This document shows positions 32,224 to 37,370 of a stretch of DNA of 64,000 bases, piece after piece (within the stretch, counting starts at the first letter, position 1; the number at the start of each line of letters is the position of its first letter). A program made the position numbers and the translations under genes. Under the pieces are notes generated by a model. That model was given only the letters and a program-made list of their open reading frames with translations, was not told the origin of the DNA and made no database searches. Where the stretch lies: assembly GCA_963829055.1 (NCBI GenBank), contig CAWHHI010000020.1, forward strand, positions 832,001-896,000, written 5' to 3'. This stretch comes from an uncultured Gemmatimonadaceae bacterium. GTDB taxonomy: Bacteria; Gemmatimonadota; Gemmatimonadetes; Gemmatimonadales; Gemmatimonadaceae.

Positions 32224-32344
32224 TCATTCCGAGCGAGCGACAGCGAGTCGAGGAATCGAGACTCTACAGGTAGAGGTGGCCCCCCTCGATCGATACGATC
32301 GCGATTCCTCGACTCCGCGCCTCCGGCGCTACGCTCGGAATGAC
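32223..32344. repeat. GTCATTCCGAGC-family palindromic element flanked by TA on both sides
   Basis: TA-GTCATTCCGAGCG...CGCTCGGAATGAC-TA; overlaps the TAG stops of both convergent genes. Confidence 0.92.
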
Positions 32345-33503
32345 TACCGCAGCGCCTCGCCGAGCGCGCCGACGAAACGATCGACACGCTCGGGCTGCGC
32401 GTTGTAGCCCATCACGCCGACGCGCCACACCTTCCCCGCCAGCGCGCCAAGCCCGCCGCCCATCTCCACGCCCATGTCGAGCAGACGCGCGCGCACCTTC
32501 GCCTCGTCCACGCCGTCGGGCACGTTGATCACGTTGATCGTCGGCGCCCGATGCGCTGGCGGGCGTGAACGAGCTCCAGGCCTAACGCGTCCAGCCCGCG
32601 CACGAGCGTCTCGTGCGCCTGCTGGTGGCGCGCCCAGCGCGCCTCGAGGCCCTCCTCGAGAATCAGCGCGCAGCGCTTCGTGGAATCCGTAGATCGGACG
32701 AGATCGGCGCCGTGTGATGAAACGCGCGCTTCTTCGTCGCCCCGGTCTCGCCCCAGTACTGAAAGAGCAGCTGAGAGGTCGAAATACCACGTGTGCGGCT
32801 TCGTCTTGCGCGCCTTCACCGTCTCCATCGCGCGCGGGCTGATCGTGATCGGCCCGAGCCCCGGCGGCGCACCGAGGCACTTCTGCTGCAGCTGCCGGCG
32901 GCGTCGACGCCTAGCGCGTCGATGTCGATCGGCATTCCGCCGAGGCTCGTGACGCAGTCCATCGCCACGAGCGCGCCGTGCTTCCGCGCCACCTCCACCA
33001 TCGGCGCGATCGGCTGACACGCGCCGGTGGTCGTCTCCGACATGCACGAACGCCACGAGCTTCGCCGGCTTCTCCTCGAGCAGCCGGTCCACCTCGGCCG
33101 GATCGACGATCTCACCCGGCGCCACTTCGACGACGCGCACGTCCGCGCCCGCGCGACGCGCCATCTCGGCGAGCCGCTGCCCGAAGTAGCCCGTGATGCA
33201 GACGACCGCGTCGTCGCCCGGCTCGAGCAGATTCATCATGATCGTCTCGAGCCCGCCGGACCCGGTGGCCGAGATCGGAAGCGTGTGATGGTTCTCGGTG
33301 CGGAAGACGTCGCGCAGCGCGCCCATCGTCTGATCCATGAGCTCGACGAAGTACGGATCGAGATGGCCGACGAGCCGCTTGCTCATCGCGGCGAGCACGC
33401 GCGGGTCCGGATTGCTCGGTCCCGGGCCCATGAGCAGACGCTCGGGCGGATCGAGCGGCGGTACGGTCGGCTTGCTCACGTCGGTCACGTACGTCTGTGT
33501 CAT
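32344..33503 (-). CDS. Alanine/serine-glyoxylate aminotransferase (class V PLP); frameshifted
   Basis: LLMGPGPSN, GHLDP, ETTTG, DCVTSLGG, QKCLGAPPG, GGGLGALAGKVWRVGVMG. Confidence 0.88.
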
Positions 33504-35037
33504 CCGAGCCCCAGCTTCTGTGCGAGTCCGATGCGCTGGAGCTTGCCCGTCGCGCCGACCGGGATCTCCGTGAGAATGAGAATCTTCTTCGGCACCTTGA
33601 AGTCGGCGAGCTTCACCTTCGCGAACTCGCGCAGCTCCTCGTCGCTCGCCGCGATGCCCTGCTTGAGCACGACCGCCGCCGCGACTTCTTCGCCGAGCAT
33701 GCGTGCGGCATCGCCGAACGTGACGCACTGATGCACGGCGGGATGCTCCATGATGATCTCGTCGACTTCACGCGGCGAGATCTTCTCGCCGCCGCGATTG
33801 ATGATCTCCTTGAGACGGCCCGTGATCGTGACGTAGCCGTCGGTCGTCCATCATGCCCTGATCGCCGGTGCGGAACCAGTCGCCGTAGAACGCGTCCGCG
33901 TTCGCCGTCGGGATTGTTCTCGTAGGCCGTCATCACGTTAGGCCCGCGGATCACGATCTCGCCGGTGACGCCCGGCGGCACGGTCTTGCCGCTCGTGTCG
34001 ACGACGCTGAATCTCCGGGCCGGCGGACGGCCCGACCGTGCCCGGCTTTCGCGCGCGCGGCGGGAGCGCGTTGCTCGCCATCTGATGCGCCGCCTCCGTC
34101 ATGCCGTAGGCCTCGATGACCGGAACGCCGAAGAGCGCTTCGATCTGCTGCGATCACCGTGAGCGGCAGCGACGACGACGACGATCGGATGAAGCGCAGC
34201 CGATGATTCTTGACGACTCTCCGCGTTGCCCGGCGCACGCAGCAGGATCGCCTGATGCATCGTCGGCACGCCGGTGTACCACGTCGGCTTCACCTCGTCC
34301 ATCCAGCCGAAGAACTTGAGCGCGTTGAAGCCGGTGGAGCAGTACACCTCGCCGCCGACCGAGAGCGGCGCGAGCAGCGCCGCGATCAGGCCGTGAATGT
34401 GGAACAGCGGCATGATCACGAGCCCGCGATCGTTCGCCGTGAGCGCCAGCGAGCCTGCGAATGTTCCGCGCCGACGCGCAGACGTTCCGGTGCGCGAGCG
34501 GCACGATCTTCGGACGCGACGTCGTCCCCGACGTGTGCAGCACGAGCGCGATGTCGTCGGGCGTCGCCGGCGCGCCGGCTGCCTGACGGCGCCGCGTCAC
34601 CGGCGAACGTCAGCGTGAACGTGCCCGCGCCTTGCTCGGGCTGCGGCGACGAGTCGCGCGATCGGCACGCCCAGCTTCGTCGCCACCTCGACCGCCGGCG
34701 AATCCTTCCCCTCGGCGACCACGAGCAGCTTCGCGCGCAGGTCGGTGAGGTAGAACTCGAACTCGTCGGCGCGATAGCCGGGGTTGAGCGGCGCGGCGGT
34801 CGCGGCCGATCCGATCGAGAGAAACGCGGCCGCCATCTCCGGTCCGTTGTCGAGCACGATGCCGACGCGGTCGCCCGGGCCGATGCCGCGCGACGCGAGC
34901 GACTGCGCTGACGTCCGCGACGAGCGTGCGCAGCGCGCGATAGCGTGAGCGGCGTGCCGCCGGGCGCGCCGAGCGCGGTCGCATCATCGGCGCCGCGCTC
35001 GAGCAGCGCGGGAATGGTCTTGCGGAAAGTCTGTCAT
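33500..35037 (-). CDS. Acyl-CoA synthetase, oxalate-CoA ligase (AAE3/Pcs60/Oxs)-like; frameshifted
   Basis: APLNPGY...[61 protein letters not shown]. Confidence 0.85.
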
Positions 35038-36059
35038 GTGGCGGTGCTGTTGCGATCCGTAGGCTGCCGTTCTGGTCCACGAGCGTCTTCGCGAGCAGGC
35101 TCGCGCAGCGCGTACACGGCGTCGATGTGCGGCGTCGGCGTATCCGTCAGGCGTCCGAGCTCGACGACGGCGCCGACGAGCGCGTCGAGCTCGATCGGCT
35201 TCGCCCGCCTCGACGTCCTGCAGCATCGACGTCTTGTGCGCGCCCACCTTCTCCGCGCCCGCGATGCGCTTGTCGATGCCGACGCGAAAGCGTGATCGCC
35301 GAGCTTGTTCGCGATCGCTTCCGCCTCGCGCATCATCGCGATGCTCAGCTCGCGCGTCAGCGGGAACTGAAGCAGGTCGACGAGCGTCGCGTGCGTCAGC
35401 GCGCTGATCGGGTTGAAGCTCAGGTTGCCCCAGATCTTGAGCCAGATCTCGCCGCGGATGTCGCTCGTGACCGGCGCCTTGAAGCCGGCCTTGTTGAGCG
35501 CGCCGGAGATCGCCTGCACGCGCGGCGACGTCCGATCCGTCGAGCTCACCGAGCGTGAAGCGTCTTGCCTTCGACGACCTGGACGACGCCGGGTGCAATC
35601 GAGCGTCGCCGCCGGATACACGACCGAGCCGATCACGCGATCTGCGTCGATGAGCCGAGCGATCGATCCGTCCGGGTCGGCCGCGGCGACCGGTCGGCCC
35701 TCGAACTCCCCGCCATGCTTGTGGAAGTACCACCACGGGATGCCGTTCTGCATCGTGACGATGGTCGTGTCATCAGTGCAGCAGCGCGTGCAGGTCCTCG
35801 GCGATCGGCGCCACCTGATGCGCCTTCACCGTGAGCAGCACGGACGTCCTGCGGGCCCGCCTCGCGCATCGTTCGCACGGCGCGCGCGCCCGTCGACACG
35901 ATCTCGTCGCCGTCCTCGCCGATGACGCGCATGCCATTCTTCGCGAATCGCATCGAGGTTCGCGCCGCGCGCGATGAACGTGACGTCCTCACCCGCCGCC
36001 GACAGCCACCCGCCGAGATACCCGCCGATCGCACCTGCGCCAACGACCGCGATCTTCAT
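35034..36059 (-). CDS. Ketopantoate-reductase (PanE/ApbA) family protein, candidate oxalyl-CoA reductase (PanE2-like); frameshifted
   Basis: MKIAVVGAGAIGG, QNGIPWWYF, EIWLKIWGNLSFNPISALT, HKTSMLQD, ELDALVGAV. Confidence 0.82.
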
Positions 36060-37370
36060 CGCGTCGTTGAAGCGGGTGACGCAGTCGACACGAACCGCGC
36101 ACGCATCGGCTTGAGCAGCACGAACGCCATGATCGCCGCCACGATGTTCATGACCGCGATCGATCGATGAACAGCGCCGTTCCAGCCGCCGAAGTTGGCG
36201 GCGATCACACTGCTGAGCGGCACGAGGAGCGAGGCCGTCCCCTTCGCGGTGTAGAGCAGCCCCGAATTCGCCGACGCGAACTTTCGCCCGTACGAATCGG
36301 CGCACATCGCCGGGAAGAGGCTGTAGATCTCGCCGTAGGCGAAGAACACGAGACACGGTCAGCGAGCACGAACGCCGTCGGATTCGCGCCGAACTTGGCT
36401 CAGCAAGAGGAAGCTCGAGCCCCTCGAGCGTGAACGCGATCATCATCGTGTTCTCGCGCCCGATGATGATCGGAGATCCAGCCGAAGAACGGACGACTCA
36501 CGCCATTGAGCACTCGATTCACGACGAGCGCGAACGGCAAGCGCGAGCACCGTGAAGCCGAACAGCGACACCTGGGCGGTTCGCGATCCCGAAGTCTTTC
36601 GCGATCGGCTTGAGCTGCGCCGTCGCGATCAGTCCGCCGGTCGCCGTCAGCACGAACATCACGAACATCACCCAGAACGGCGGCGACTTGCAGCATCTGC
36701 GTCGGCGTGTACTCCGGCGTCGGCGTCGAGGCCGCCTTCTCGCGCCGGCGATGCCCTTCACGCGATTCGTCCGGCGCTTTGAGCAACCAGCCGACGAGGA
36801 ACACGACGAGGCCCTGCGCGATGCCGAACTTGAGGAACGTCGCCTCGTATCCCTGCGACTTGATCATGTTCGCGATCGGGATACACGGTCAGCGCGGAGC
36901 CTGCGCCGAATCCCATCGCGGTGATGCCGGCCGCGAGTCCGCGTCGATCGGGGAACCACTTGAGCGCGTTGCCGACGCACGCACCGTACACGCCGCCCGC
37001 GCCAATGCCGCCGACGATCGCGCCGAGGTACAGCATGCGGGAGCGAGTCGGCGTAGCGCGTTGATGACCCACGCGGCGGCGACGAGGATCCCGGACCCGA
37101 CGCCGACGAGCTTGCGGCCCGAACTCGATCGACGAGGTAGCCCTCGAGCGGAACGAGCCACGTCTCGACGACGACGAAGATCGTGAACGCCACCTGGATG
37201 GCGGGCAGCCCCCAGTGGTGCTTGTCCTCGATCGGATTGACGAACAGCGTCCAACCGTACTGCAGGTTGGCGATCATCGACATGCAGATGACGCCGAGCG
37301 TCAGCTGCCACCAGCGTCCTGGCGCGGCGACGCGCACGCGCTCAGCGGGTACTGCGGCGATTTCACTCAT
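36056..37370 (-). CDS. oxlT: Oxalate/formate MFS antiporter; frameshifted
   Basis: MIANLQYGWTLFV, VGNALKWFPDRRGLAAG, RPFFGWISD, GEIYSLFPA, GLLYTAKG. Confidence 0.85.

Follow-up and report, generated by a model that had tools for sequence, protein, structure and literature searches.

Can a bacterium still take up and assimilate oxalate when searches of its genome show neither frc nor oxc? This question is raised by a 64,000-nucleotide stretch of DNA (the window; positions 832001-896000 of contig C20) from an uncultured Gemmatimonadaceae bacterium. Its genome assembly, G000, comprises 7.78 Mb in 20 contigs and is 85.9% complete and 3.95% contaminated (G-, L- and P-numbers denote the genomes, loci and proteins of this analysis). 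We identified four minus-strand genes in the window: oxlT, encoding an OFA (oxalate/formate antiporter) family MFS transporter (36056..37370); panE2, encoding a PanE/ApbA-family reductase that is a predicted oxalyl-CoA reductase (CoA-acylating glyoxylate dehydrogenase; 35034..36059); oxs, encoding an AMP-forming acyl-CoA ligase that is a predicted oxalate-CoA ligase (33500..35037); and a gene for a class V pyridoxal phosphate (PLP) aminotransferase of the predicted alanine/serine-glyoxylate type (32344..33503). We consider it reasonably probable that the operon converts oxalate to glycine mainly as a co-substrate for the glycine, serine and one-carbon (C1) pools, and quite likely that it runs forward from oxalate, be it for such co-assimilation or for growth on oxalate. 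Substrates, direction of flux and co-transcription are read here from sequence and genomic context.

Predicted functions of the four genes

The four genes are joined by ATGA start/stop overlaps, read on the minus strand, at 36056-36059, 35034-35037 and 33500-33503, which confirms the layout first proposed from the bare sequence. Since L049 carries the same four genes with all frames open and keeps the ATGA overlap at all three junctions, the arrangement is not due to chance. Gene limits, reading-frame breaks and identities in the window were obtained by frameshift-aware alignment to intact orthologues.

Among solved structures, the ligase at L017 is closest to three oxalyl-CoA synthetases, namely Lathyrus OCS (6qjz; 1e-135, 456 bits), Arabidopsis AAE3 (5ie0; 1e-129, 437 bits) and yeast Pcs60 (8aff; 1e-113, 384 bits), all at least 150 bits ahead of the next match, a malonyl-CoA synthetase (6e-68, 233 bits). 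Residues S289 and H319 in AtAAE3 numbering are described as specific to oxalyl-CoA synthetases, and a plant enzyme whose pocket is of this kind discriminates against malonate by a factor of 10,000 (PMC8905533; this and the other PMC articles are cited from the accessible parts of their text). The window ligase retains both residues, together with H214, H216, M314 and K500, in common with its nearest solved relatives. S289 and H319 are found in 98 of 98 aligned ligases and K500 in 87 (the other 11 are truncated), and S289/H319 occur in none of the other G000 ligases with a readable motif. Both its nearest characterised relatives and its Ser289/His319/Lys500 signature thus place the enzyme among the oxalate-CoA ligases (EC 6.2.1.8), and it is 69-71% identical to the ligases encoded beside panE2 in Methylobacterium species other than M. 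extorquens. In plants the product of this ligase passes to oxalyl-CoA decarboxylase (PMC8905533), whereas here it would likely pass to the reductase. We also found Oxs-like adenylation domains, 52-56% identical, heading NRPS (nonribosomal peptide synthetase)-like genes or a 1206-residue protein (L022, 7050-8915, on G011:C75; L023, 5913-9533, on G007:C7); these are candidates for oxalyl-loading starter modules.

The reductase orthologue scores 437.6 bits on NF005089 (cut-off 223). Read through with X at the breaks, the window reductase is 67% identical over 334 residues to M. extorquens P0170. The ends of P0170 agree with the sequence specified by the primers with which the assayed M. extorquens enzyme had been cloned (PMC9485241, supplement). 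That enzyme, PanE2, was assayed as an oxalyl-CoA reductase (PMC8411744, PMC9485241). A quick tree of 130 rows, rooted at its midpoint with no outgroup and giving no direction of transfer, places the window sequence in a Gemmatimonadota clade with 99% support, itself within a clade with Methylobacterium supported at 97% (SH-aLRT). This identity, the shared clade and the neighbouring gene for a predicted oxalate-activating enzyme fit a PanE2/ApbA2 enzyme (EC 1.2.1.17), and G000 has other PanE-family genes for pantothenate. Within its own genus, the window reductase (35034-36059) groups apart from L017, L018, L033 and L034, the genes on either side are different, and the cassette is missing from two of six congeners, all of which hints that the cassette has moved within the phylum.

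For the transporter, the intact orthologue at L017 in G005 scores 623.8 bits on the OxlT equivalog model TIGR04259 (cut-off 335), and the C-terminal OxlT piece of the window itself scores 107 bits. The closest solved relative of the L073 transporter is Oxalobacter OxlT (8hpj; E 6e-66). Of the oxalate-binding residues named for OxlT (PMC10070484), the window protein retains Q34, Y35, Y124, N268, R272, Y328 and K355. In an alignment of 63 rows, R272, K355, Y124 and N268 are invariant and Q34 and Y35 occur in 62; W324 is a tyrosine in the window and W352 a tyrosine in all aligned transporters. The model score and Arg272/Lys355 together point to an OxlT. At five loci (L120, L121, L131, L140 and L141, in G180, G167, G084, G426 and G129) oxlT is missing, and oxs and panE2 lie beside another membrane protein. 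We take this protein to be NRAMP-like, and it is a candidate for an alternative oxalate transporter.

The aminotransferase at L049 is closest in structure databases to the cyanobacterial alanine-glyoxylate aminotransferase (AGT) 1vjo (5e-105), followed by mouse AGT 3kgw and PucG 3nnk. The window protein has the PLP lysine of the S-Q-K motif, and IMG labels members of the family alanine/serine-glyoxylate transaminases. The class V fold and motif are shared with 1vjo, mammalian AGT1 and PucG, and fold, motif and nearest solved relatives together place the protein among the class V AGTs. Because of its lower score, and because no purine genes were recognised among the recurring neighbours, a PucG-type use of ureidoglycine is less likely. 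Other identities were rejected: L049 reaches 170.6 against 650 bits on NF045640, the model for BhcA of the beta-hydroxyaspartate cycle (other bhc genes were not searched), and the aminotransferase falls far below the cut-offs for both PhnW and pyridoxamine-pyruvate transaminase.

Taken together, the transporter, the ligase residues and the identity of the reductase are three independent signatures within one operon, and they support an oxalate substrate. The gene identities and the parallel with Methylobacterium suggested in the original prediction are likewise borne out by profile scores, pocket residues and the 67% identity to PanE2; the reductase falls in a supported clade with Methylobacterium and the ligase lies nearest to plant AAE3-type oxalyl-CoA synthetases. 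On this evidence OxlT would import oxalate, Oxs would activate it with ATP to oxalyl-CoA, PanE2 would reduce oxalyl-CoA with NADPH to glyoxylate, and the aminotransferase would transaminate glyoxylate to glycine. Glycine would then feed protein, serine (through GlyA) and C1 units (through glycine cleavage), by means of genes elsewhere in the genome, and other substrates would provide the NADPH and ATP. The route had been called self-contained, but the term is too strong: the four genes use ATP, NADPH and an amino donor, all of which must come from other genes or substrates, and yield no energy.

Frameshifts and flanking sequence

None of the four genes is intact in the window. We counted 41 frameshift events in the operon (34 of +1, two of +2, four of -1 and one of -2), with 12 in oxlT, nine in panE2, 13 in oxs and seven in the aminotransferase gene. 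The operon might therefore be a pseudogene cluster in this strain. Such a density of breaks within 5 kb would fit decay, and it weighs against a working operon that genes on either side of it, at 26.7-31.0 kb and 43.8-46.4 kb, are intact, as are gcvP, fdh and serA. The nature of the events argues otherwise: 36 of the 41 are insertions, no in-frame stop occurs, and protein identity to the L073 orthologues is still 72% for OxlT, 78% for PanE2 and 81% for both Oxs and the aminotransferase.

Illumina contigs of close relatives (not of this strain; four public runs from rhizosphere, soil and freshwater sediment) cover the operon piecewise at about 92-98% identity, and each of the three junctions is bridged by a single contig. 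Among the indels listed, these contigs lack the base at 34943, 35200, 36356, 36466/7 and 36878, in every case no more than three bases from an inferred break, and two other pairs compensate each other. The damage also extends beyond the operon, through unrelated neighbours to about 44 kb. Genome-wide, 118 of 771 ten-kb bins have less than 15% cover by long open reading frames (ORFs), and 44 of 114 ORF matches of relatives are split over frames in G000, or 38 of 108 when the operon's own six rows are removed (a rough count that includes duplicates and antisense ORFs); fhs is among the genes split in this way. Decay of the operon thus appears very unlikely. Errors in the assembly consensus are the most likely cause of the frameshifts, and the operon is therefore probably functional in this organism.

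Next to oxlT, a sugar-dehydrogenase-like gene (37565-39284) and an ABC-permease-like gene (39340-41850), both labelled partly by appearance, are broken like the operon. Directly behind the stop codon of the aminotransferase gene lies a palindromic intergenic repeat (32220..32347), about 125-130 bases long and by appearance similar to repetitive extragenic palindromes, at which public contigs pile up. Copies occur near 6542, 23947, 43665, 46300 and 62406; the repeat is not specific to the operon, and it may terminate the transcript. A sigma-70-like promoter was sought and none was found, an Rfam search of 31500-38500 at E up to 1 returned no match, and inspection by eye of some 260 bases ahead of oxlT at 24 loci showed no common motif. 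Nor does a regulator recur beside the Gemmatimonadota cassette among the neighbours compared. Elsewhere in the window, 17-base tandem units at 1355-1611 form a long inverted repeat.

Conservation of the cassette and distribution of frc and oxc

A scan of genome contigs gave 534 relatives of the reductase, of which the best 80 were kept. Eleven of the 33 Gemmatimonadota loci among them carry oxlT, panE2, oxs and the aminotransferase gene in a row (L038, L039, L049, L050, L062, L064, L071, L073, L075, L079 and L081, with one split gene in L039 and L062). G341 and, over two contigs, G449 have the same four genes, so that this order is found in 13 other genomes, and at L094 the aminotransferase gene lies 4.8 kb downstream of the core. 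The three-gene core stands alone in four of six genomes of the same genus and in G052. At the Methylobacterium loci the order is oxlT-panE2-oxs, with an FAH-family gene between oxlT and panE2 and no aminotransferase. An FAH-family gene lies beside panE2 at L088 (7181-7945) and at 22 other loci from Methylobacterium, several beta- and gammaproteobacteria and one member of the Myxococcota, and is not part of the Gemmatimonadota core.

The markers of classical oxalate degradation were sought in G000. The best frc score (TIGR03253) is 181 bits against a cut-off of 504 and the best oxc score (TIGR03254) 88 against 739, in a genome 85.9% complete; the Oxc-like enzyme of frc operons (see below) has no match at 1e-60, oxdC has no match in a profile search, and the glyoxylate carboligase gene gcl (TIGR01504), which would mark the glycerate pathway of oxalate assimilation, reaches 145 against 711 bits in G000 and passes the cut-off in none of five genomes tested. 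G000 thus does not present the gene set of classical Frc/Oxc oxalotrophy. The absence of frc and oxc, first noted for the window, extends to the genome as assembled, in which formate dehydrogenase (FDH), glycine cleavage (gcvP) and glyA are present.

The same pattern was observed in the 50 genomes behind the loci, in which frc passes its cut-off in none of 27 cassette-bearing Gemmatimonadota, in seven of seven Methylobacterium and in one of 16 others. The latter include metagenome-assembled genomes of Burkholderiales, Acidiferrobacteraceae, Rhodocyclales and Myxococcota that have an oxs-panE2 pair but no frc. Over 80 genomes (three of the 80 handles are duplicates), oxc passes its cut-off in seven, all Methylobacterium.

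Two further gene associations involve frc itself. In G007 (L024, 1-10128, on C30), G106, G122, G375, G404 and G461, a thiamine pyrophosphate (TPP) enzyme lies beside frc; it reaches only about 200-235 of the 739 bits of the oxc cut-off, and is present at 68-73% identity in these six genomes. The G007 frc operon also holds genes for an ADP-forming acyl-CoA ligase, a GntR regulator and oxlT, and close matches to its Oxc-like enzyme occur only in six genomes, all of which have frc. This TPP enzyme is probably a second type of Oxc that the oxc model misses. In three genomes (G323:C63:51968-55483, G361:C7:16527-20044 and G393:C17:15835-18439) frc lies within about 1.2 kb of a gene for a class V aminotransferase 42-44% identical to that of the operon, and neither type of Oxc was found in G323 or G393. 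These pairs are perhaps an Frc-activated version of the same route.

A wider sample of 401 Gemmatimonadota genomes, 395 of them at least 90% complete, contains a PanE2-like gene in 76 (E up to 1e-60) and frc in 18. Both occur in 13 genomes, where no oxs lies closer than 1.5 kb to the reductase gene (oxs elsewhere was not searched). Of the 63 frc-free genomes with a PanE2-like gene, all but five have oxs beside it, which makes 58 (in G088 at a distance of 3.8 kb). Pairing of the PanE2-like gene with either frc or an adjacent oxs is expected if both supply oxalyl-CoA. Kinship limits the independence of these counts, as 45 of the 58 genomes come from two families and largely from two genera; their reductases are more distant (about 45-52% identical to the query, with that of G103 49% identical to M. 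extorquens) and no oxlT was seen beside them. The oxc gene was found in none of the 17 of these 58 genomes that were tested. Incompleteness does not account for the pattern, since among the cassette genomes that lack frc, G088, G128 and G177 are 99-100% complete and G167 and G180 consist of a single contig. The expectation that frc-based surveys would miss such bacteria therefore holds across the phylum, with 58 frc-free oxs-panE2 genomes compared to 18 genomes with frc.

Oxalate as a probable co-substrate and the competing readings

Because frc and oxc were not found in the genome, oxalate would serve mainly as a co-substrate. Genes for the use of its products are present, and G000 encodes gcvP, glyA, folD, fhs, an FDH alpha subunit, serA and malate synthase. 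The same four steps could instead be the entry to oxalotrophy without Oxc or Frc, in which oxalate alone supports growth. Glycine would then yield CO2 and methylene-tetrahydrofolate (methylene-THF), which FolD and Fhs would convert to formate and FDH to CO2, or glyoxylate would enter by malate synthase. The gcvP, folD, fhs and fdh genes needed are encoded, fdh and fhs are neighbours in the four-gene genomes G430 and G433, and formate would serve OxlT as a counter-substrate. A comparable route, with OxlT, two-carbon intermediates including glyoxylate, and C1-THF enzymes leading to formate, has been described for Kribbella (Robertson and Meyers 2022, as summarized in section 12 of the review PMC13409138). 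By that summary, from which the likeness is known, this actinobacterial genus has been shown to grow on oxalate and the proposed route may be confined to it, and the features given (no oxc, the presence of OxlT, and encoded glycine cleavage, C1-THF enzymes and FDH) recur in G000, including the genes for the later steps.

Against growth on oxalate alone stands its thin margin. By textbook stoichiometry, we calculate a net gain of one NAD(P)H at the expense of one ATP equivalent for each oxalate converted to two CO2 via glycine, methylene-THF and formate; one serine made from two oxalate requires three NAD(P)H and four ATP equivalents. Nor does the distribution of FDH follow that of the cassette. 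Matches occur in 64 of 80 genomes, both among those that carry the cassette and among those that do not, and several cassette genomes have none, G088 and G177 (99-100% complete) among them, so that the idea that FDH tracks the cassette was not supported. None of the conclusions rests on G013, which is one row of this tally (FDH match, no cassette) and possibly also part of the phylum sample. Cupriavidus necator no longer grows on oxalate once frc-oxc is lost (PMC7486775), though frc probably also activates oxalate there. In engineered yeast, Oxs and PanE2 rescued glycine and serine synthesis, although poorly before evolution (PMC12686821). Because growth on oxalate alone looks poor on paper and FDH does not follow the cassette, we favour co-assimilation and regard oxalotrophy by these genes as a serious but rather unlikely alternative.

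Several observations on the surrounding metabolism stand apart from this choice. At L212 and L213 (G430:C1 and G433:C23, both four-gene genomes) an FDH alpha subunit gene with an in-frame TGA, possibly encoding selenocysteine, is clustered with formate-THF ligase, and TGA-bearing FDH genes are common across the order. A few kb from fhs in G000 (C16, about 620500-622600) lie ORFs that we take, from motifs, to be microcompartment shell-like and aldehyde-dehydrogenase-like. The cassette does not replace serA, which is over cut-off in G000 and in three of five genomes tested.

The substrates might be small acids other than oxalate: the ligase might activate some other short (di)carboxylate, and the reductase might use ketopantoate or a different acyl-CoA. 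Neither enzyme is called oxalate-specific by any NCBIfam model and their annotations are generic, the motif residues of ketopantoate reductases are retained, and the transporter orthologue also passes the SfMCT lactate-transporter model (335.1 against 320 bits), though this is far below its score on the OxlT model. Against these points stand the residues specific to oxalate in the pockets of the ligase and the transporter, the discrimination of the plant pocket against malonate noted above, the 67% identity to PanE2 and the pairing of PanE2 with either frc or oxs. We therefore consider a different substrate improbable.

A reversal of the operon is conceivable as well, with glyoxylate, for example from oxygenation by RuBisCO, converted to oxalyl-CoA and then to oxalate for export by OxlT. 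PanE2 is reversible in vitro (PMC9485241), C. necator ApbA2 is able to work oxidatively (PMC7486775), and G000 encodes a RuBisCO large subunit (L232; C11:318306-319229). However, pyrophosphate hydrolysis would, by textbook knowledge, pull an AMP-forming ligase toward activation, no Oxc or Frc was found to use the oxalyl-CoA, and RuBisCO occurs in only one of five cassette genomes tested, for which reason a general link to RuBisCO was rejected. Flow from glyoxylate to oxalate is highly improbable, and conversion of oxalate toward glycine remains our preferred explanation.

That explanation has to be set against the following points. The window ligase departs from AtAAE3 at three of eight pocket positions (V215I, C288S and A313G), although these substitutions are common to most bacterial homologues. 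Databases name the reductase a ketopantoate reductase; the Asn, Lys, Ser and Glu that we take to be the motif residues of that enzyme are kept in all 130 rows, the M. extorquens-like ones included, and we know of no residue that separates oxalyl-CoA reductases from ketopantoate reductases. OxlT is an antiporter in Oxalobacter, and here no Oxc/Frc was found that would supply formate for the exchange. The incompleteness of G000 also limits the marker absences in that genome. In addition, an aminotransferase orthologue is absent (none above 36% identity) from 22 Gemmatimonadota genomes with the PanE2-Oxs core, 11 of which have no malate synthase match either, and homologues 59-68% identical lie away from the cassette in 18 genomes of a neighbouring family, 16 of them without a PanE2-like gene. 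Since the aminotransferase is missing from core-bearing relatives and has homologues outside the core, glycine is not the obligatory end point of the route.

The aminotransferase is a recruited, optional fourth gene. An impression from same-genus relatives that it was a chance neighbour was overturned by the recurring four-gene loci. Exclusive association with the cassette holds in the family, where none of 93 other genomes in the phylum sample has the gene, and fails in the neighbouring family. Replacement by malate synthase was also rejected, as that enzyme is present in 11 of 22 three-gene genomes and in five of 15 aminotransferase-bearing ones.

The chemistry is known and the arrangement is new. 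Oxs and PanE2 reportedly form the oxalate-assimilation module of Methylorubrum (Methylobacterium) extorquens AM1 described by Schneider et al. in 2012, where Oxs and the serine cycle are said to have roles. The Methylobacterium module shares with ours the gene order, the sequence similarity given above and the path from oxalate through oxalyl-CoA and glyoxylate to glycine. It differs in its FAH-family gene, in having no clustered aminotransferase and in the frc and oxc genes (seven of seven genomes) that serve for energy, whereas the present operon has a built-in AGT of cyanobacterial/animal type and its genome no frc or oxc that we could find. Oxalobacter formigenes shares an OFA transporter with R272/K355, but there OxlT works with CoA transfer and decarboxylation to formate by Frc and Oxc. 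Cupriavidus necator shares a PanE2-like reductase, ApbA2, 51% identical to PanE2 (PMC7486775), but combines it with Frc/Oxc and with Gcl, none of which was found here. Our literature search retrieved no report of this operon and none joining oxalate, Gemmatimonadota, glyoxylate and oxalyl; most subscription journals lay outside it, and it is weak evidence of novelty. Term searches of the accessible text of two survey papers (PMC10192776 and PMC12927642) and of the review PMC13409138 returned no word beginning with "Gemmatimonad" and no "synthetase". A transporter, reductase, ligase and built-in AGT without Frc/Oxc is thus a new arrangement of known steps, in a phylum for which we found no such report.

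Oxalate turnover in soil has been surveyed with frc, oxc, oxdC and oxlT (PMC10192776), and a warning that frc/oxc surveys undercount has already been published (PMC13409138). Most surveys cannot see the route described here, because its enzymes carry the generic labels ketopantoate reductase and acyl-CoA ligase. A marker is at hand in the adjacent oxs-panE2 pair, which in this sample picks out some three times more Gemmatimonadota genomes than frc does. Oxalate is a concrete substrate to try in culturing Gemmatimonadota, and the four genes are a candidate module for the conversion of oxalate to glycine. More tentatively, and with a likelihood that we regard as rather low, Oxs-PanE2 may be the main oxalate route of the phylum (58 against 18 of 401 genomes), with the four-gene operon feeding a complete oxalotrophy without Frc or Oxc. 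If this is true, abundant soil bacteria would be a hidden oxalate sink missed by every frc/oxc survey.

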